Made by a program: the position numbers and the translations under genes. From contig JAQTNC010000002.1 of assembly GCA_028714475.1 (NCBI GenBank), forward strand, positions 14,609-78,608: DNA of 64,000 nt, in the 5' to 3' direction. This DNA comes from Patescibacteria group bacterium. GTDB lineage: Bacteria > Patescibacteriota > Patescibacteriia > SG8-24. The notes under the pieces are model-generated. The model was not told the origin of the DNA, did no database searches, and saw only the letters and a list, made by a program, of their open reading frames with translations. This document shows, one piece after another, positions 31 through 61,581 of this stretch. How positions within the stretch are numbered: the stretch's first letter is position 1; every line of letters starts with the position of its first letter.

Positions 31-51
31 CAAGACCTGACCCCGTTTTCC
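31..51 (-). repeat. Copy A1 of recurring motif (reverse orientation): caagacctgaccccgttttcc, the reverse complement of GGAAAACGGGGTCAGGTCTTG
   Basis: Direct read. Matches the 3611/5837/7816 copies over ~20 nt. Confidence 0.6.
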
Positions 52-164: not shown

Positions 165-186
165 CCCAAGACCTAATCCCAAAACG
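165..186 (-). repeat. Degenerate copy A2 of the same motif (cccaagacctaatcccaaaacg), 130 bp from A1 in the same orientation
   Basis: Direct read. Resembles the right arm of the 3611-3666 palindrome (tcaagatctaacccaaaa). Confidence 0.4.
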
Positions 187-388: not shown

Positions 389-1126
389 ATGGATATAAAC
401 GAATCCCACCCAAACGCTAAAAGCAATCTTAAGAATAGAACGGAAATTTTGGAATATTCCCTCACCATCGAAGATGCCATTGATTCCTTGTTGCTCATGT
501 ATTTGGGCATATATGATAAAAAGAAATCCAAAGGGCCTCAAGTATCAAAAACAAAATTTAACGTTAGTTTTCAAAGCAAAATAGATTTGTTGTTTGACAT
601 AGATGTCCTGTCAAAAGAAGAACATTCAGATTTAGAATTATTAATGAATTTTCGAAACAAATTTCTTCACGAAATTAGATGTAATTCATATTTATCCGTA
701 GTAAATCTTTTTGATAATGGAATTAAGAATAGATTTAAGAAATATTTAAATAAAAATGGCAGCATAGAAGAGGAAGATTCATGTAAATGGGGGTGCTTCA
801 ATTTATATGGCAAGAATCTTCAGACAATTCAAAAAAAGGTTAAGGAAAAAATCGACCAAACTCAAGACAAGGCCAGTCTCGTTAATACTCTTCTAGCAAA
901 GAACGTAAGAATGATTGACATGTCTTTTGGTTTTGTTACTGACTTGCTTAAGGAAATGAAAAAGGCCGAATTAGAAAATCGTAAAATTCGAGCATTGGTA
1001 AGTTTGGTAGCGTCAAAATGTAAAGATTACACCGACGGTATAGGGGTTGATAGGAGAATGGCAAAATTAGATAAAAGAATGAAGAAGCTTCTTTCCGAGG
1101 AAAGAATAAAAAAGTACCTTAAATAA
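389..1126 (+). CDS. Hypothetical Lys-rich protein encoded by a strongly AT-rich gene, with a HEPN-like R-x4-H motif (RNKFLH, residues 89-94). Candidate effector/partner of the downstream ATPase.
   Basis: 245-aa ORF, the only long ORF here. GC about one third versus 60%+ in the flanks. 12-nt gap to the next gene on the same strand. No recognisable housekeeping family. Confidence 0.5.
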   Translation: MDINESHPNAKSNLKNRTEILEYSLTIEDAIDSLLLMYLGIYDKKKSKGPQVSKTKFNVSFQSKIDLLFDIDVLSKEEHSDLELLMNFRNKFLHEIRCNSYLSVVNLFDNGIKNRFKKYLNKNGSIEEEDSCKWGCFNLYGKNLQTIQKKVKEKIDQTQDKASLVNTLLAKNVRMIDMSFGFVTDLLKEMKKAELENRKIRALVSLVASKCKDYTDGIGVDRRMAKLDKRMKKLLSEERIKKYLK

Positions 1127-1138
1127 AGATGCTCCGGT

Positions 1139-3445
1139 ATGCGGTTCAGAAAAATCAAGGAAATTATGGACAGCGACGCATTTGACTCCTTCGACTGGAA
1201 GGGGCCAGATTTTAGGCGCTATAACTTGATTTACGGGTGGAACGGCTCGGGAAAGACCACGACATCCAGAATCTTTCGGTCAATAGAGTGCGGCGCGGTC
1301 GCGACAGAATTGGGTGCGACCCAGTTTCAGGTGGTGACGGAGGACGGAATTATGAGGAACGTCGACATCACGGCTCCGTCCAATGGCGTCAGAGTATTCA
1401 ACGACGACTTCGTTAAGGAAAACCTAGAGTTCCATGAGTCCAAAACCAAGCAAATCCTCATAGTCGGCAATGCTAGCATAGAGGCGGAGGGCAAAATCAG
1501 GTCTCTGGAAGAGCGCAGAAAGGAAGCTGGCATAGAAAGGAAAGTGTTGGAGGAAAGCCTGGGCAAAATCAAGCCGCTCGACAAGATTCGCAAGGCCGCC
1601 AGCGACGAGGTGGTGAAGCAGTTTGCCAACACGCCGCTCGGCACCAGCGACTACAGCGGTCGCAAGTACAACAGAAAGGAAGTCGATGACCTTCTCGCGA
1701 AAAACATTATCACCGAGGCGAATGTCAAGTCGCTGGTTATCAATAAGCAGGAGGATATCGACCGCCGCCGCGAGGTAATTAAGAGCCAGCGCCAGAAGGT
1801 GCCGGTCTTTCCCGAAACGGTTGAGGACTTCTCGCAGGTGTTTGCCGACGCGAACCTGCTTCTTCAGGCCAGTCCGGCGGCAGAAAAAATTGACGAGCTT
1901 TCTAACGATGACGAGAGGAGATTGTGGGTGGAGGACGGCTACGCACTTCACACCGCTCGAGGCTCCCACGGCTGCCTATTTTGCGGTAAGACGCTCGACG
2001 GCGGATTCCTTGAGCGTCTCGCGAGGTTCTTCACAAAAGAGATGGACGAGGTCAAGAAGAATGTCGATGTAGCCATCGCACTACTGGACACGTCGCCCAT
2101 GCGCGGCGAGACGTCACAGCCGGACGCGGGTCTGCTGCTGCCCGACCTGAGCATCGAGTATCTATCCTTCAAGGCAGAGGCCGACAGGTACGCGGTGGAG
2201 ATTCGGGCGGCGATCGGCAAGATGACGCAGGCGCTCAAAGACAAACGGCAAAACGTCCAAGCGGTAGCACCCGGGCTTAAGATCGTAGAATACCCATCAA
2301 AGGCCATCACTGGTTTCAACGAGGTCATCGCAAAGATGGTCGCCACGATACACAAGCACAACGAGCAGATCGACAAGAAAATCGAGGCCGCCAAGGAGAT
2401 AGAGCTGCACATCGTCGCCAAGACGCTCGTGGAGAAGGACTACTTCTCGACAAAGGCCGAACATGATTCCCTGACTACGAAAATCGGCGGCCTGACCACA
2501 GAGATTGACGAGATCGAGCGTAAGGTCGCCGGTTTAAAATCGGCCATCCTAGACTCGGCGATCGCCATCGGGAAGATAAACGGGATGCTCGAAGAGTTTT
2601 TCGGGCGGGGCCACATTTGCCTCGAACCTGCCACGGGCACCGACTTGGGTTATGTTCTAAAGAGAAGGGGCAAGAATGCGAGGAACCTGAGCGAGGGCGA
2701 GAAGAACGCCGTGGCCTTGGCGTTCTTCCTGACAAAGCTCGATGAGGGAGACTTCAGCAAGAAGGATGGTTCGGTGGTCGTCGACGACCCCGTCGACAGT
2801 CAAGACGAGCTGTTCCTATTCCGCGCGTTCAGCCTAATCAAGCGGCATGTTAGCCCCTGCGGCCAAGTAATACTGCTCACGCACAACTTCCCGCTGTTCA
2901 ACTTGGTGCGTGACTGGCTTTCTCACGAGAACCGTAAGCGTCACAAGACCAAAAATGACTCGGTGTCCGAATTCTTCATGATGAGGTGTCTGAGAAGTGA
3001 GTCCAGTCACGAGACCGTTGTCGAGCCGCTCCATGACTTGCTGATGAAGTATAAAACGGAATACCAGTATCTATTCCACCAGCTGTACAAATTCGGCGCT
3101 GGCGAGGCTGGCGTCGACGTGCCCCTGATTCCGAACATCGGTCGCAAGGTGCTCGAATACTTCGCCAGCTTCAAGTGGTCGTGCGACGTGGGCGAGGAAC
3201 TCGGGGCGATTGTCCAAGAGAAATACGTTGACGCCCCTAACGCCACCACCGATCAAAAGGCCAACGGGGACTTCATAAAGAAATTCGTGGACGAGTATTC
3301 GCACGGCAAGGACTTCGGCAGGCCGATAACGGCGGCTACTTTTGAGGCAAAAAACGTAGCGGTTAACGTGCTCAAGCTGATTGAGACCGCCGACCCCGAA
3401 CACTACGACCGGCTCGTCGCTCTTTGCAAGGAGGACGACGAGTGA
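1139..3445 (+). CDS. RloC/PrrC-like (AAA_13-type) Rad50/SMC-fold ABC ATPase with coiled-coil insert and CxxC zinc hook
   Basis: 768 aa. Walker A GWNGSGKTT (aa 33-41, nt 1235-1261). ~450-aa charged, helical insert carrying CLFC at aa 279-282 (nt 1973-1984). ABC-signature-like LSEGEKNAV. Walker B VVVDDPVDS. H-loop LLTHN. ~180-aa C-terminal tail containing RSESSH (R-x4-H). Confidence 0.7.
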   Translation: MRFRKIKEIMDSDAFDSFDWKGPDFRRYNLIYGWNGSGKTTTSRIFRSIECGAVATELGATQFQVVTEDGIMRNVDITAPSNGVRVFNDDFVKENLEFHESKTKQILIVGNASIEAEGKIRSLEERRKEAGIERKVLEESLGKIKPLDKIRKAASDEVVKQFANTPLGTSDYSGRKYNRKEVDDLLAKNIITEANVKSLVINKQEDIDRRREVIKSQRQKVPVFPETVEDFSQVFADANLLLQASPAAEKIDELSNDDERRLWVEDGYALHTARGSHGCLFCGKTLDGGFLERLARFFTKEMDEVKKNVDVAIALLDTSPMRGETSQPDAGLLLPDLSIEYLSFKAEADRYAVEIRAAIGKMTQALKDKRQNVQAVAPGLKIVEYPSKAITGFNEVIAKMVATIHKHNEQIDKKIEAAKEIELHIVAKTLVEKDYFSTKAEHDSLTTKIGGLTTEIDEIERKVAGLKSAILDSAIAIGKINGMLEEFFGRGHICLEPATGTDLGYVLKRRGKNARNLSEGEKNAVALAFFLTKLDEGDFSKKDGSVVVDDPVDSQDELFLFRAFSLIKRHVSPCGQVILLTHNFPLFNLVRDWLSHENRKRHKTKNDSVSEFFMMRCLRSESSHETVVEPLHDLLMKYKTEYQYLFHQLYKFGAGEAGVDVPLIPNIGRKVLEYFASFKWSCDVGEELGAIVQEKYVDAPNATTDQKANGDFIKKFVDEYSHGKDFGRPITAATFEAKNVAVNVLKLIETADPEHYDRLVALCKEDDE

Positions 3446-3610
3446 TGAGCGTCGGCGGTGCTAATCAAACCGTCCTTCAGGACGAAGTTCGACAGCAGTC
3501 TCTCGAGTATGGCCCGCTTCTCGTCCCTCGTGCCCTCCTTGAGCACGTATTTGGCGTACGTCCTGACGTTGAACCCGGCCGCCGCCTTAGCCAGCTCGTC
3601 TGTCATGCCC

Positions 3611-3666
3611 CGGAAACGGGGTCAGGTCTTGAATCATCAGTTTTCATGTTAATCAAGATCTAACCC
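3611..3666 (+). repeat. Copy B of recurring motif (cggaaacggggtcaggtcttgaatcatcagtttt), forming an imperfect palindrome with tcaagatctaaccc 20 nt downstream
   Basis: Direct read. Preceded by the small hairpin ccccg-gaaa-cgggg. Sits about 165 nt after the stop of the 768-aa gene. Confidence 0.6.
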
Positions 3667-3725
3667 AAAATCCTGACGACCTTTGTCCAACGCTTCTTCG
3701 GCGCGGTCTGCAACATCTAGTCATG

Positions 3726-3734: not shown

Positions 3735-3766
3735 ACAATCGGTCCTTTTTGAAGGGAGGAACCGAG

Positions 3767-4189
3767 ATGTTGACCATCAGATGTCACTTCCATCCGCGCT
3801 ATCGGGCCCATAGGGAGCCCAAGAACGATTGTGAGACCTGCCGGCTCCTTTACGCCTTGGCTCATCAGCAAGACGGGAACACCGAAGAGATTCTTAGGCG
3901 GCTCGGTTCAGGGCTCGCCGGAACAACTGGTGACGACAAGATGTCTGTAGCCCTGGAAGGCATGGAAACGGGCAGGGCCTCGACCCTGACGGTGAAGTGC
4001 AGCCATCACCAATATCAGGCCACCCGGAAACCAGGGTGGAATTGCGATGCCTGCTGGCTCCTCTTTGTGCTCAAGTTCCAAGCCCACAAGGACGGAGAAA
4101 GGCGACTCGGTCCCTTCAATCCGTACGCCTACGTCATCGGTCACGTGAATCTGAAAGCAGCCTGTGCCGCCCTGCTGATTGTCAGGTAG
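3767..4189 (+). CDS. Small protein with two tandem Zn-ribbon-like repeats (C-x-H-H/F-H ... C-x2-C)
   Basis: 140 aa. Repeat 1 is CHFHPRYRAHREPKNDCETC and repeat 2 is CSHHQYQATRKPGWNCDAC, each followed by a W/RLL(Y/F)xL motif. Strong RBS. Own promoter. Confidence 0.5.
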   Translation: MLTIRCHFHPRYRAHREPKNDCETCRLLYALAHQQDGNTEEILRRLGSGLAGTTGDDKMSVALEGMETGRASTLTVKCSHHQYQATRKPGWNCDACWLLFVLKFQAHKDGERRLGPFNPYAYVIGHVNLKAACAALLIVR

Positions 4190-4291
4190 ACGGACGGCAA
4201 GCATCTTCGGCTCCCGCTGGGAGCTTTTTGTTTAGCCCAATCGTCATGAAAATAATGGCTCGAATCCCAGCCTTGCGCCTAAACTGCAGGG

Positions 4292-4379: not shown

Positions 4380-4565
4380 ATGAGCGACAAGCCGGCTGGA
4401 ACTTATCAGTGCGTTATCTGCTCGGCTACTTGGGACGGGTCACAGTTGCACGAAGACCCGATGAGTACGGGCCAGCGGTGGACTTGCGGCGATCCTTTCT
4501 GCGGGGCCAATGTCCGCAAAATCAGCGACGAGCCAAAAGCAAAGAAGAGTCCCGGTCAAACGTAA
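4380..4565 (+). CDS. Small Zn-ribbon protein (CxxC ... CGDPFC)
   Basis: 61-aa ORF. YQCVICSATW and WTCGDPFCGAN cysteine pairs. Consensus promoter upstream. Confidence 0.4.
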   Translation: MSDKPAGTYQCVICSATWDGSQLHEDPMSTGQRWTCGDPFCGANVRKISDEPKAKKSPGQT

Positions 4566-4738: not shown

Positions 4739-5857
4739 ATGAACAAGGCCATTCTATACAATGTTATCGGCGTACTGGCAGTCTTGGCGGTAATATTTTT
4801 CAAGATACCGGCGGTCTGGGTGGTTCTCGGGATTTTGGCGGTTTTGGTCATGGTCATCGTCAGCCCCTTTGTGCCCGCCGTCGAAAGCATCCCGAAGGGG
4901 TTCGTCGAAAAGAAATTCGACACGGGGAAAGTCATCCTGAATTACGTGGAAGGCCCGGACAACGGCCCGCCAATGCTTTTTATTCCGGGACAAACGGAAT
5001 TCTGGCAAGGCTATAAACTGGTCATGCCCAACTTCGCCAAGAAGTATCACGTCTTCGTCGTAGACGTCAGGGGGCACGGGAAATCGACCAAAACTCCTGG
5101 CGAATATTCCTACAACATCATCGGCGAAGACCTGAAGGCTTTTTTGGAAACGGTCATCAAGAAACCGGCGATCGTGTCCGGTTTGTCTTCCGGGGCCGTT
5201 CTCGCCTTGTGGTTGGCGGCCAACGCCCCGGAGTCGGTCTCGGCCGTCGTGAGCGAGGATCCGCCGCTCTTTTCCGCCATGTGGCCGCACATCAAGGAGG
5301 AAAAATACATGTATCGCCTGTTTGAAATCATGGTTGAGTGTCTCGGCAAGCCAAAACGGGACATCTTGGACTACTTCATGAAGCAGGGGATTCCCAAAGA
5401 CGGTCAGGATGAGCTGTTGCTGATTCCACCCTGGATCGCCAAGTTCATCGTGGGTGATTTTGAACTCAACAAAAGATTTCGCCCGTCAAAAAAGTACGAC
5501 GTGCCTTTGGCTCCCTTCAGCGGCCGGGTCGGCCTCAAGTTCATCAGTGAGTACGACGTTGATTTTTCCCGGGCCACGATTGACGGCCGGTTGACGGCAG
5601 GGTTCAATCCCGAGGAGACGTTAAAAAAAATCAACTGCCCCGTATTGTTGATTCAGGCGCTTTGGTCCAGGCACGCGACCTGGGGACTGCTGGGGGCGCT
5701 GGATGACAAAGACGTTGAAAAAATCCGCGCCCTGGTAAAAAACCTCCAGGTCGTAAAAGTTAAAGCCATCCATGATGTTCACTTGTCCAAGCCAAAAATT
5801 TTCATCAAGGCGGTCAATGAATATCTGGATAGTTTACGGAACGGGGTCAGGTCTTGA
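4739..5857 (+). CDS. Membrane-anchored alpha/beta-hydrolase fold protein
   Basis: 372 aa. Two N-terminal hydrophobic helices. HGxGxS-type VVDVRGHGKS. GxSxG nucleophile elbow GLSSGA. Stop codon TGA lies inside motif copy C. Confidence 0.75.
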   Translation: MNKAILYNVIGVLAVLAVIFFKIPAVWVVLGILAVLVMVIVSPFVPAVESIPKGFVEKKFDTGKVILNYVEGPDNGPPMLFIPGQTEFWQGYKLVMPNFAKKYHVFVVDVRGHGKSTKTPGEYSYNIIGEDLKAFLETVIKKPAIVSGLSSGAVLALWLAANAPESVSAVVSEDPPLFSAMWPHIKEEKYMYRLFEIMVECLGKPKRDILDYFMKQGIPKDGQDELLLIPPWIAKFIVGDFELNKRFRPSKKYDVPLAPFSGRVGLKFISEYDVDFSRATIDGRLTAGFNPEETLKKINCPVLLIQALWSRHATWGLLGALDDKDVEKIRALVKNLQVVKVKAIHDVHLSKPKIFIKAVNEYLDSLRNGVRS

Positions 5858-5869
5858 ACTATCAGTTTG
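5837..5869 (+). repeat. Copy C of recurring motif (cggaacggggtcaggtcttgaactatcagttt)
   Basis: Matches copy B over >30 nt. Contains the stop codon of the hydrolase gene. Confidence 0.65.
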
Positions 5870-6021
5870 ACCAGTCGTCGCCTCATTGTCGCCGCTGGCC
5901 CTTTTTTGCTGTAATTTACCAACTAAAAGGCCTACGGTGTAGGCGGGCCGTTAAGTGTAATCACGGCGATAATCGGTTGTTGTATTGGTTTGTCGTAGTG
6001 GTTAGTAGAGACGGCGGAGAC

Positions 6022-6053
6022 AAAAGACGGGTTTAACCCGTCTTTTGTTTTTG
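6022..6053 (+). terminator. Rho-independent terminator (aaagacggg-ttta-acccgtcttt plus T-run)
   Basis: Perfect 9-bp stem followed by TTTTGTTTTT. Confidence 0.6.
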
Positions 6054-6112
6054 ACCCGCGACGGCGTCGGCGTTACAATGCCCGTATAATTCTTCACCTT
6101 CTTTTTGCTCAT

Positions 6113-6922
6113 ATGCGTGCAAAACATCTCATCTCCACTTCATTGTTATTGGCATCGCTCGCGCTCGTCGGCTTTGGTTGTGGCCAGAAGGCGTCCGTAT
6201 CCACGAACGCGTCGCCGGCCGCCAACAAGCAGCCCGCCGCGCCGGCCGAGAGGCCGAGCACTACGACTTCGGACTCCTGCGGCAACCCGTATTACCCGTT
6301 CAAGCCCGGCTTGACCATCGCCTATAGCGTCACGCCGCCAGCGAACACCCCGGGAGATGCCGACTACACGGTCCGCACCGTCAGCGTATCCGGCAACAAG
6401 GCCACGGTGCGCACCGAGATGGCCGGCGGCGTCACTGCCGACATGGAGGCCGACTGCGCGAACGGCTCCGTTGAGATGAAGGGGTCGTCTGGGCTCGGCG
6501 CCGACGTCCAGGGGTTCAAGACGACCGTCATCTCGTCGAGCGGCACATTCATGCCAGCGGACGTCTCGGCCGGTTCCACCTGGAGCAACTCGAAGACGGT
6601 GAGGATGGATTCGGCCGGCGGCTCGGCCGCGGCTGCGGCCATGGGTTCGCTCATCATGACTACGACGGAGCAGAGCCGGGCGGTCGGCGAGGAATCGGTT
6701 ACGGTTCCGGCCGGCACGTATAAGGCGATGAAGGTCGAGTCGACGCAAACCACGACCTCCAAGTTTTCGGCTACGCCGGCGGGCACGCAGTCCAGCGAGA
6801 TGCCGCCGTCGACTTATACGTCCACCGAATGGTTGGTGAAAGGCATCGGCATGGTGAAATCCGTGACGAAGGGCGAGGGCGGCACCTCGACCACCGAGGC
6901 GAAGTCGATCACCGGGCTTTGA
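6113..6922 (+). CDS. Ser/Thr-rich lipoprotein, function unknown
   Basis: 269 aa. Signal peptide with lipobox LVGFGC. Low-complexity T/S/A-rich sequence. The antisense ORF 6146-7003 is judged a GC shadow. Confidence 0.6.
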   Translation: MRAKHLISTSLLLASLALVGFGCGQKASVSTNASPAANKQPAAPAERPSTTTSDSCGNPYYPFKPGLTIAYSVTPPANTPGDADYTVRTVSVSGNKATVRTEMAGGVTADMEADCANGSVEMKGSSGLGADVQGFKTTVISSSGTFMPADVSAGSTWSNSKTVRMDSAGGSAAAAAMGSLIMTTTEQSRAVGEESVTVPAGTYKAMKVESTQTTTSKFSATPAGTQSSEMPPSTYTSTEWLVKGIGMVKSVTKGEGGTSTTEAKSITGL

Positions 6923-7147
6923 CGCGTAACGGCACCTGCTTAACGTACGGAACGGAAAAGAGGACGTCCGGCTCGGGCGTCCTCTTAATGTGCGTCGGCT
7001 CACCCGAAAGTTTCCGGCAGAAAGCCCTCAACAGCTTCGATTTTGCAGCCGAGCAGCCGCCGCCGGCGAAGCCCCGGGCTGCGGCCCGGGTGAGCGGCGG
7101 GTGAACCGGAATACCTACCCCAAACATTTGGTGTAGAATAGAATCAT

Positions 7148-7546
7148 ATGCAAAACAACATGCCCAAATTCCTTTATTGGACCCCAAGAATTCTATCGAT
7201 ATTGTTTATTTGCTTTTTGGCAATATTTTCGTTGGATGTAATTTCTCCCGGATTAGGTTTTTGGCAAATAGCTATTGGATTATTCATGCATAATATTCCG
7301 GTATTCGTCTTGACGGCCGTTTTGGTTATTTCGTGGAAACACGAACTCGTCGGCGGAATCGTTTTTAGCCTAGTCGGGCTACTCTTTGCCGCCAGGATGG
7401 TGATTACTATGCTGACGAACCGGTTTGAATGGGGTGGGCTGTTTGGAGCCCTGCCGCTGGCCGTTCCAGCGCTTCTGATAGGAATATTATTTATTACTGG
7501 GTGGCTTAAAAAGAGGACTGGCCGTAGTGATGTATCCGTGAAATAG
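7148..7546 (+). CDS. Small integral membrane protein (4 predicted helices) encoded by a relatively AT-rich gene
   Basis: 132 aa with hydrophobic helices. Lower GC than the flanks. Confidence 0.5.
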   Translation: MQNNMPKFLYWTPRILSILFICFLAIFSLDVISPGLGFWQIAIGLFMHNIPVFVLTAVLVISWKHELVGGIVFSLVGLLFAARMVITMLTNRFEWGGLFGALPLAVPALLIGILFITGWLKKRTGRSDVSVK

Positions 7547-7601
7547 GTTCTGACTTCGTCTACAGTACGGACACAAAAAGTCAGAACTTGTTGGGATGTG
7601 A

Positions 7602-7925
7602 ATGCCTATGCGCCGATTCAACATCAACGAGCTCGCCGACTGGCAGTCGCCGGAGCGGCGCGATGACTTGCCCAAGTGTGAATTCTCGGGCAAGGACATG
7701 CACCCGAACGAGCGGAGCGCAAAGGCCGCCGCAACTTGGCGCGAATCGCAGGCCGGGACGCCGATGGGCGTCTATTTTTGCGTGTGGTGCAAAGCTTGGC
7801 ACCTGACGTCTTCCCGGGTAACGGGGTCAGGTCTCGGACGTGAATTCCGCGGCGTCCCGACCCCCCTTACCGACCATCGGCACCAGCCTTCTCGCCATAT
7901 TGACATTGCATTTGTAACCTCCTAA
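7602..7925 (+). CDS. Small Cys-containing protein (CEFSGK ... CVWCKAW). The C-terminal 29 codons read through motif copy D.
   Basis: 107-aa ORF. Preceded by the hairpin gttctgactt-N21-aagtcagaac. Confidence 0.35.
   Translation: MPMRRFNINELADWQSPERRDDLPKCEFSGKDMHPNERSAKAAATWRESQAGTPMGVYFCVWCKAWHLTSSRVTGSGLGREFRGVPTPLTDHRHQPSRHIDIAFVTS
7816..7866 (+). repeat. Copy D of recurring motif (gggtaacggggtcaggtctcgg), forming an imperfect inverted repeat with cgtcccgacccccc
   Basis: Direct read. The TTGA of copies B/C is TCGG here. Confidence 0.55.
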
Positions 7926-8907: not shown

Positions 8908-9052
8908 CGCCACCGTCTTCATAATAACCGCCCTGTCTCAAGGGGCGGTTTATTAGTTAATTGCGCCCCGAGCCTCGGCCTTGCCATTTTTTGGCTATGT
9001 GGTAAAGCTAGAGATAGTGTTCGGCCTTTACAGGCAAGAGAGGAGTCGCGTC

Positions 9053-10165: not shown

Positions 10166-10203
10166 TCGGCCAGCTTCCACCGAGCAGTCTCGTCCTCTCC
10201 ATG

Positions 10204-10229
10204 CCAGGCGCTATCGCCTGGCTTTTTTG
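10204..10229 (+). terminator. Rho-independent terminator (ccaggcg-ctat-cgcctgg plus TTTTTTG)
   Basis: 7-bp stem plus T-run, 39 nt after the ald stop. Confidence 0.7.
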
Positions 10230-10258: not shown

Positions 10259-10275
10259 CCCCCCAAGACCTGACC
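10259..10275 (-). repeat. Copy E of recurring motif (reverse orientation; ccccccaagacctgacc)
   Basis: Reverse complement GGTCAGGTCTTGGGGGG. Lies between the ald terminator and the kinase gene. Confidence 0.5.
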
Positions 10276-10367
10276 TTATTTAAGAAAGATGCCCCCACTT
10301 TCCCGGGAAAATCAGCTTCACAAATGGCCGTTATTTTGCTAAAATTAAATAGACAAAGAAACCCCTT

Positions 10368-13767: not shown

Positions 13768-13783
13768 CTTCGGGGTCAGGTCG
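13768..13783 (+). repeat. Copy F of recurring motif (cttcggggtcaggtcg), immediately after the terminator
   Basis: Shares the core GGGGTCAGGTC. Confidence 0.45.
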
Positions 13784-13818
13784 CCATTTTTGGCGCTTAG
13801 AGATATAATTCTGGACAT

Positions 13819-49104: not shown

Positions 49105-49200
49105 TAGGTAAGTGCTGGGGTGCTGGAGAAATTGTTGGCGGTATTGTTACGATGTTTAGTTATTCTTTCTTCAGTACTTCAGCACTCCCCAACTTCAGCA
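49105..49200. repeat. Palindromic repeat element, copy 1 (arms gtgctgg(g/a)g ... cttcagtacttcagcactcc ... cagcactc)
   Basis: 20/20 identity of cttcagtacttcagcactcc with 61537-61556. Both copies have inverted half-sites GTGCTGGAG/CTCCAGCAC and GTGCTGAAG/CTTCAGCAC. Confidence 0.6.
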
Positions 49201-49203
49201 CTC

Positions 49204-61494: not shown

Positions 61495-61578
61495 TGCTGA
61501 AGCGGGGAAGTGCTGGAGTAATGAAGAGCAAAAAATCTTCAGTACTTCAGCACTCCAGAACTCCAGCACTCCTGCGCT
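61495..61578. repeat. Palindromic repeat element, copy 2 (gtgctgaag...gtgctggag...cttcagtacttcagcactcc...ctccagcactcc)
   Basis: Fills the thiI-rsmI intergenic gap. Twin of 49105-49200. Confidence 0.6.
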
Positions 61579-61581
61579 CCC

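Follow-up and report, generated by a model that had tools for sequence, protein, structure and literature searches.

A short repeat at gene 3' ends in a Patescibacteria genome most probably corresponds to the terminal inverted repeat of TIRtrons

How can one short sequence provide the stop codon of one gene and be read straight through by another? This question is raised by a stretch of 64,000 nucleotides from a Patescibacteria group bacterium (assembly GCA_028714475.1, contig JAQTNC010000002.1, positions 14,609 to 78,608 of the forward strand), referred to below as the window, in which a short repeat with the 14-nt core GGGGTCAGGTCTTG recurs several times. An earlier, sequence-only reading took the repeat for a DNA element that reshapes the 3' ends of genes, and suggested that it marks recombination junctions in the manner of the attC sites of integrons. 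In this work, we keep the first part of that description and replace the second: the repeat is most probably a terminal inverted repeat (TIR) of the GGGGWSAS class, as found at the ends of TIRtrons, and not an integron site.

The name TIRtrons was given by Di Nocera, De Gregorio and Rocco 2013 (PMC3733652) to RAYT-like genes flanked by terminal inverted repeats, and the enzymes encoded by these genes, TIR-associated tyrosine transposases, were called TIRYT. GGGGWSAS is common to the TIRs, and members of the repeat families are found alone, as dimers or in groups (PMC3733652). Quentin et al. 2018 (PMC6006769) assigned most TIRYTs to subclass 2.1 of TnpA-Y1, which is characterized by a tail of the HTH_23, HTH_28 or DnaA_C-like type; in the classification of Bertels et al. 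2017, this subclass is RAYT Group 1 (PMC6006769; PMC5581495). TIRYTs belong to the HUH/Y1 enzymes of the RAYT/IS200 superfamily and carry a helix-turn-helix at the C-terminus (PMC6006769).

Identity of the repeat and its partner gene

The 15-mer AACGGGGTCAGGTCT has four exact matches in the window (copies A, B, C and D), all within the first 8 kb; for one given 15-mer, about 1e-4 exact matches are expected by chance in 128 kb. When up to three mismatches to the core are allowed, copies A', B', E and F are added (Table 1). About five chance matches are expected at the three-mismatch level, hence copy F, which overlaps a promoter-like site 5' of a gene for an MFS transporter, is regarded as doubtful. 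At the outer end of the repeat, copies A, B, C and D all carry GGGGTCAG, which fits the GGGGWSAS consensus of PMC3733652 and PMC6006769. A full-text literature search with the motif string and shorter cores returned no relevant paper; the identity of the repeat came through the RAYT literature.

The repeat is widespread. One genome per species was scanned with the 17-mer pattern AACGGGGTCAGGTCTTG, which gave at least 120 loci, of which 120 were fetched (labels beginning with L denote such loci and contigs); by an estimate made in this analysis, roughly 70 matches would be expected by chance for a 17-mer in the genomes scanned. The loci come from Gamma- and Betaproteobacteria, Nitrospirota, Acidobacteriota, Actinomycetota, Atribacterota and Planctomycetota, and their copies often form inverted pairs with arms of 14-20 nt or short tandem arrays. 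A scan of metagenomes with GGGGTCAGGTCTTGAANNATCAG, the variant common to copies B and C, also gave at least 120 loci, and again 120 were fetched. Viral contigs yielded only three matches, so the motif is not a phage feature.

The link with a transposase gene emerges from these loci. A protein of about 285 amino acids, starting with M(A/T/S)RPLRIE and composed of the IS200-like domain Y1_Tnp of Pfam followed by a helix-turn-helix (HTH) at the C-terminus, is encoded in the fetched stretch of 21 of the 120 genome loci, where its gene adjoins a copy of the repeat in most cases, and of 38 of the 120 metagenome loci, with one repeat located upstream of the ATG; together, this gives 59 of 240 motif loci. 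In L145, L156, L165, L175, L205, L237 and L252, an inverted repeat borders or overlaps the 3' end of the gene, and these seven, together with L053, represent complete units in which the gene stands between two TIRs. On the NCBIfam model REP_Tyr_transpos the protein scores 67 bits, below the cutoff of 80; it is RAYT-like, with a probable place in the TIRYT subclass. In this subfamily the repeat is 27 nt long, GGGGTCAGGTCTTGAAnTATCAGTTTT, with a sharp outer boundary of conservation at GGGG. The window copies match these TIRtron ends closely: the first 23 nt of copy B are identical to the upstream repeat of the TIRYT gene in L141, and copy C shares 26 identical nt with L226.

In the loci L003-L252 (e.g., L071, L144, L158 and L237), the TTG of the repeat upstream of the TIRYT gene precedes the start codon by 31-38 nt in 31 of 48 cases. 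In 17 of the 48, the TTGnnn hexamer is followed after 16-18 nt by a TAnnnT sequence, and in most of those 17 the ATG is found 5-7 nt behind it. Such spacing suggests that TIRYT genes may be expressed as a leaderless mRNA, with the -35 box of their promoter located within the repeat; the parts of PMC3733652 and PMC6006769 available to us do not mention such an arrangement.

Two further arrangements were observed in the fetched loci. In L043, L071, L076, L087 and L091, tandem arrays of half-units (AACGGGGTCA every 10-25 nt) are placed 5' of the full repeat, upstream of the TIRYT gene, and are reminiscent of iterated binding sites of an HTH domain. L188, L208, L238 and L251 contain perfect hairpin dimers of about 68 bp (GGGGTCAGGTCTTGAAATATCAGTTTTGTTCAA...TTGAACAAAACTGATATTTCAAGACCTGACCCC), several per contig, which are derivatives in metagenomic organisms that resemble REPINs and miniature inverted-repeat transposable elements (MITEs).

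The window copies are orphans: the solo copies C, D and E, the decayed inverted dimer B/B' and the small tandem A/A', whose members stand in direct orientation 136 nt apart. Copy A is located about 60 nt past the 3' end of a + strand gene to the left of the window, in the orientation opposite to that of B, C and D. The idea that copy A precedes a TIRYT gene beyond the edge of the window was rejected, as the left flank, read in L124, shows the end of a + strand gene instead. Copy B alone has a clearly matching inverted partner, with which it forms a degraded hairpin dimer; for copy D there is a weak, partial partner, CGTCCCGACCCC, at about 7851-7862. When folded as DNA and compared with shuffled sequences, only copy B performs better (z -2.3), and A, C, D and E give z values from +0.8 to -0.1. 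The junctions at A-B, C and D are not assembly artefacts or chimeras, because independent Logan contigs from the same sample span each of them (L123, L001 and L002, respectively).

Table 1. Copies of the repeat and the reading frames discussed with them, in window coordinates.
Feature	Position	Strand	Description
Copy A	31..47 (15-mer 33-47)	-	exact, AAC+GGGGTCAGGTCTTG
Copy A'	167..180	-	degenerate GGGATTAGGTCTTG, 2 mismatches
Copy B	3615..3644 (15-mer 3615-3629)	+	AAC+GGGGTCAGGTCTTGAATCATCAGTTTT, full 27-nt repeat
Copy B'	3654..3667	-	TGGGTTAGATCTTG, 3 mismatches, decayed inverted partner of B
Copy C	5840..5869 (15-mer 5840-5854)	+	AAC+GGGGTCAGGTCTTGAACTATCAGTTTG, monomer without inverted partner
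Copy D	7820..7836 (15-mer 7820-7834)	+	AAC+GGGGTCAGGTCTCG, 1 core mismatch, TTGA changed to TCGG
Copy E	10264..10277	-	degenerate AAGGTCAGGTCTTG, 2 mismatches; past the terminator of the alanine dehydrogenase gene
Copy F (doubtful)	13772..13785	+	GGGGTCAGGTCGCC, 3 mismatches
Alpha/beta hydrolase gene	4739..5857	+	TGA and the five sense codons before it (N G V R S) supplied by copy C
Small Cys-rich protein gene	7602..7925	+	native part to near codon 72 (..WHLTSS)
67-aa open reading frame	3403..3606	-	putative C-terminal remnant of a recombinase-like protein; truncated 8 nt from copy B

The repeat and the 3' ends of genes

The alpha/beta hydrolase gene ends with cgg aac ggg gtc agg tct TGA, in which an Arg codon stands at the junction. 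Across the family the repeat goes on as ...GGTCTTGAAnTATCAGTTTT, so the in-frame TGA (5855-5857) is part of it. It was confirmed in this way that copy C supplies the stop codon, as had been read from the sequence. Among 119 homologues of the hydrolase, mostly named Patescibacteria or Paceibacterota, the usual end is ..YLxxL with a short variable tail, and not one of the 119 ends in NGVRS. The homologues most often have 19-20 residues from the HDVHL motif to the C-terminus, compared with 23 in the window protein. By this comparison, the tail of the hydrolase is non-native, and it comes from copy C.

The second example is a small Cys-rich protein encoded by the open reading frame (ORF) 7602-7925, which passes through copy D (GGTCTCGG) in frame +1 relative to copy C and continues for exactly 29 codons beyond it to a TAA at 7923-7925; its last 35 codons (7818-7922) come from copy D and the DNA behind it. 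The substitution of TCGG for TTGA, the 29 codons and the change of frame had all been noted correctly. The interpretation attached to them, that a lost stop codon extends the ORF, does not hold: copy D is read as ..A ACG GGG TCA GGT CTC GG, and with an intact TTGA the codons would be GGT CTT GAx, among which there is no stop, so the read-through is due to the frame of the junction and not to the change from TTGA to TCGG. Homologues of this protein fall into three clusters of 71-74 amino acids, all ending in WHLTSSK(R/Q/K) directly before the stop, and the orthologous locus L126, which lacks the motif, has a terminator hairpin behind the stop. Therefore, the window protein carries 35 non-native residues, which start where the repeat starts. 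A weak likeness of its N-terminus to those of TIRYTs (14 amino acids, E above 1) was attributed to chance.

Alignment of orthologous C-termini had been set in advance as the check on this element. The motif-encoded tails of both the hydrolase and the 7602 protein are unshared by their homologues, which agrees with the earlier proposal that insertion of the motif reshapes gene 3' ends. Judged by these alignments, just two or three codons of the ancestral frame at most were left in either gene where the repeat begins.

Copy B had been described as lying in a third frame. This is arithmetically true of ORF 3458-3652 only, and ORF 3424-3663 has the same frame as copy D. Both of these + strand ORFs are antisense to the minus-strand ORF 3403-3606, and since the latter has homologues and is the gene call of the Logan contig, copy B is most likely non-coding and probably belongs to no credible gene.

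Are copies C and D exceptional? A survey of 382 repeat instances in the fetched loci, in which an entering frame was defined as an open frame of 100 codons, indicates that they are not. An open frame enters the repeat in 26% of instances, compared with 54% at random positions of the same loci, and once it has entered, a stop is met within 15 codons in 57% of cases, compared with 12% at random positions. The three frames are used roughly equally on entry (32/38/30), which bears out the view that the motif is a DNA element and not a conserved peptide. The repeat contains one TGA in one frame per orientation (GGG GTC AGG TCT TGA, and AAG ACC TGA in reverse). In the TGA frame, 24 of 32 ORFs end exactly on this TGA, as do 14 of 14 in the reverse orientation; in the other frames ORFs extend for a median of 15-22 codons further. 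A copy C that stops its gene at once and a copy D that is read through are the ordinary behaviour of the family. These results fit a DNA element that is tolerated solely in intergenic DNA and at the extreme 3' ends of genes.

Spread of the copies and alternative explanations

We propose that a TIRYT recognising the repeat would spread copies in trans, as in the case of REP/REPIN and MITE repeats (REP, repetitive extragenic palindrome), by single-strand chemistry analogous to that of RAYT/REPIN and IS200/IS605. Of these insertions, selection would then leave just those located between genes or within the final few codons of a gene. A gene struck in the TGA frame would terminate immediately, as at copy C, and a gene struck in another frame would continue to a chance stop, as at copy D with its 35 extra residues; the window copies, which are dispersed among the accessory genes of one region of a Patescibacteria genome, would be the result of such events. 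We infer that the enzyme is, or formerly was, present in the lineage.

Several points weigh against this proposal. No TIRYT gene is present in the window (tblastn with six TIRYT proteins, nothing below E 0.18), and no named Patescibacteria protein is found among the best 120 of at least 8000 TIRYT homologues. Neither a target-site duplication nor a precise insertion boundary can be defined for the window copies. Every copy falls within the first 14 kb, which is a clustered rather than a dispersed distribution; in the remaining 50 kb, which encode housekeeping functions (e.g., SUF, ThiI, MetRS and leucyl aminopeptidase), the core scan with up to three mismatches found no convincing copy. In all four exact copies GGGG is preceded by AAC, a combination that is uncommon across the subfamily as a whole (7 of 144). 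Finally, the available parts of PMC3733652 and PMC6006769 report no experimental transposition by a TIRYT.

The surroundings of the copies have to be described before the alternatives are weighed. The 67-aa minus-strand ORF next to copy B overlaps the end of an AAA_13 gene and matches only the C-terminal 45 or so residues of small proteins (best E 1.9e-7), which share the tail motif DVRxYAKYxLxEGTxDEKRELLxxLKSxxILKDG. In one of these homologues, P0251, a resolvase-like N-terminus is fused to such a tail. The ORF resembles what is left of a truncated recombinase gene. A tblastn comparison of this remnant with phages gave no match. The AAA_13 gene belongs to a two-gene module (389-3445, + strand) that consists of an AT-rich ORF (30% GC, 245 amino acids, no family) and a 768-aa ATPase that matches PDC-S06, a candidate defence system of PADLOC (E 2e-135); this pair recurs in another metagenome-assembled genome (L124, GCA_028711105.1). 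Between copies B and C, the hydrolase gene is accompanied by genes for two small Cys-rich proteins without a family (3749-4189 and 4380-4565, + strand), and the 146-aa member of this pair has an apparent internal duplication (CHFHPRYRAHREPKNDCETCRLLYAL / CSHHQYQATRKPGWNCDACWLLFVL). Terminator-like hairpins of neighbouring genes are separate from the copies (e.g., 4209-4225, 8926-8950 and 10203-10222). Orthologues of the hydrolase gene in motif-free contigs of the candidate phyla radiation (CPR; L128, L129-L131 and L132) have different neighbours on both sides in each, including genes for Fic, FecR, GmrSD/HNH, LysE and a cation ATPase. These neighbours are unrelated on both sides, and no empty insertion site was found through hydrolase synteny; the hydrolase behaves as an accessory gene of variable regions, independently of the repeat.

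The first alternative is that the copies are scars or hot spots of TIR-mediated rearrangement, each of them marking a junction between modules of different origin. This explanation, which we regard as unlikely, gains from the recombinase-like gene reduced to its last 50 or so residues that copy B abuts, from the confinement of all copies to a 14-kb accessory stretch that includes the candidate defence gene, and from the comparison with L126, in which synteny is kept upstream of copy D and broken after it. However, each junction is represented by one comparison, no pair of copies flanks a segment in a transposon-like orientation, and the varied context of the hydrolase gene in motif-free CPR genomes means that breaks of synteny need no repeat. 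The earlier statement that the motif marks recombination junctions can be kept in a loose sense only, for the position of copy B beside a truncated recombinase-like gene, and has to be given up in the integron sense.

According to the second alternative, the repeat is a protein-binding operator or promoter module, bound for instance by the HTH of a TIRYT-like regulator, and its overlaps with stop codons are incidental. The TTG of the repeat does occupy the -35 position upstream of TIRYT genes, with the TAnnnT element described above in 17 of 48 cases, TIRYTs do have an HTH domain (PMC6006769), and copy F overlaps a promoter-like site. The exact copies of the window, however, are found at gene 3' ends rather than at promoters, and in both orientations, the window contains no candidate regulator gene, and a promoter function of the orphan copies is unlikely because copies A-E all lack a correctly spaced -10 box. 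Overall, an operator is an improbable account of these copies.

A third alternative ascribes to the TIR copies the role of working joints in a cassette-like system. A Y1 (HUH) transposase would cut and rejoin DNA at GGGGTCAGGTCTTG, and modules of two or three genes (the defence gene, the hydrolase, a lipoprotein set) would be shuffled as in an integron, with single-strand HUH chemistry; the clustering within 14 kb, the truncated recombinase at copy B and the break of synteny at copy D would be the traces of this activity. We consider such a system very improbable.

Slightly less probable still are RNA-level elements of the 3' untranslated region (stabilisers, terminators or sources of small RNAs) selected at gene ends. 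Copies B, C and D are indeed on the sense strand, at or just past the ends of coding sequences, and REP elements have been reported, in the part of PMC3733652 available to us, to affect transcription termination and mRNA stability. Nevertheless, copies A, C, D and E have no significant structure, none of the copies is terminator-like, several neighbouring genes possess terminator-like hairpins of their own, copies A and E lie antisense to the neighbouring genes upstream of them, and no copy has a match in Rfam.

The attC-like sites of an integron-type cassette array, the inference with which this locus was first presented, can be dismissed almost entirely: copies B, C and D do share one orientation at the ends of co-directional gene groups, and a stop codon does fall inside the repeat at copy C, but the main ORFs of the window encode no integrase, Phage_integrase or other recombinase domain (the sole recombinase-like trace being the 67-aa remnant), the bases before AAC (GAAA, GGAA, ACGG and GGGT) do not give the RYYYAAC of an R'' site, inspection by eye, with no pattern search run, revealed no GTTRRRY (R') partner at attC distance, copies A, C, D and E fold no better than shuffles, the orientation of A, A' and E is opposite to that of B-D, the intervals carry two or three genes, several of which have terminator- or promoter-like sites, Rfam at a permissive threshold (positions 1-16 kb) gave just a chance RNase P fragment, and in dozens of unrelated genomes this repeat is found on the flanks of Y1 transposase genes.

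Two other candidates were rejected. A hammerhead-like CTGATGA beside copy B has the counterpart CTGATAG at copy C and gave no Rfam hit, and the GGGG end resembles the inverted repeat of Tn3-type elements, but no Tn3 transposase is present. A second repeat family, unrelated to the one described here, was observed in two intergenic regions of the window (49108-49203 and 61495-61579); it is built of clusters in which GTGCTGRAG units and units of the complement CTYCAGCAC are inverted to each other, with a 36-nt stretch that is 92% identical.

Comparison with known systems

The likeness to integrons is limited to the stops of upstream genes, which can fall inside the attC site, and to the recurrence of sites between co-directional genes. 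An attC site is an imperfect palindrome of 57-141 nt that folds into a single-strand hairpin, and integron cassettes keep to one orientation and mostly consist of a single gene without a promoter; in contrast, the repeat described here has no IntI, no R''/L''-L'/R' architecture and no bottom-strand hairpin, and it occurs in mixed orientation around multi-gene intervals. The tempting label of integron attC is replaced by the right one, that of TIRYT/TIRtron end repeats.

Small non-autonomous repeats that alter C-termini or supply stop codons are also represented by the Correia/NEMIS elements of Neisseria and the palindromic elements of Rickettsia. They come from insertion sequences with a DDE transposase or are of unknown origin, and they have target-site duplications. 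Unlike such MITEs fused to host ORFs, the repeat described here has a Y1 parent element, and no duplication can be defined. The window offers a worked example of C-terminus rewriting, with a five-residue tail and a new stop in one protein and 35 unrelated residues in another. In annotation, proteins that end in GVRS directly before the stop, or that have GSGL... read-through tails beside the motif, should be treated as repeat-modified.

Similarly to REP/REPIN sequences, the repeat is short, is found in intergenic DNA close to gene 3' ends, forms inverted doublets (here B/B', and the perfect dimers of L188 and L208), and is linked in related loci to a single-copy HUH/Y1 transposase gene that is flanked in inverted orientation. 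In contrast to the self-complementary REP unit of 20-40 nt, it has neither an internal palindrome nor a GTAG or CGTC tag, the enzyme linked to it has an extra HTH domain, and it is conserved across phyla, whereas REPs are lineage-specific.

The closest relatives are the TIRs of TIRtrons, with which the repeat shares GGGGWSAS at its outer end, the flanking of a Y1+HTH transposase gene by inverted copies in related loci, the occurrence as singles (C, D and E), a dimer (B/B') and a tandem cluster (A/A'), and a moderate copy number combined with a very wide taxonomic spread. The TIRtron arrangement itself has already been described; what is different here is that the window contains orphan copies without a TIRYT gene, in a host from Patescibacteria (CPR), a group that is unnamed in the taxonomic summaries of those papers, as far as these were available to us. 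This suggests that repeats of Y1 transposases reach bacteria of the candidate phyla radiation. The available parts of the TIRtron papers are also without the 14-nt core GGGGTCAGGTCTTG across phyla, the fixed start distance of 31-38 nt and the overlap with host stop codons. As this core is common to many phyla, it makes the pair of TIRYT and repeat accessible for biochemistry.

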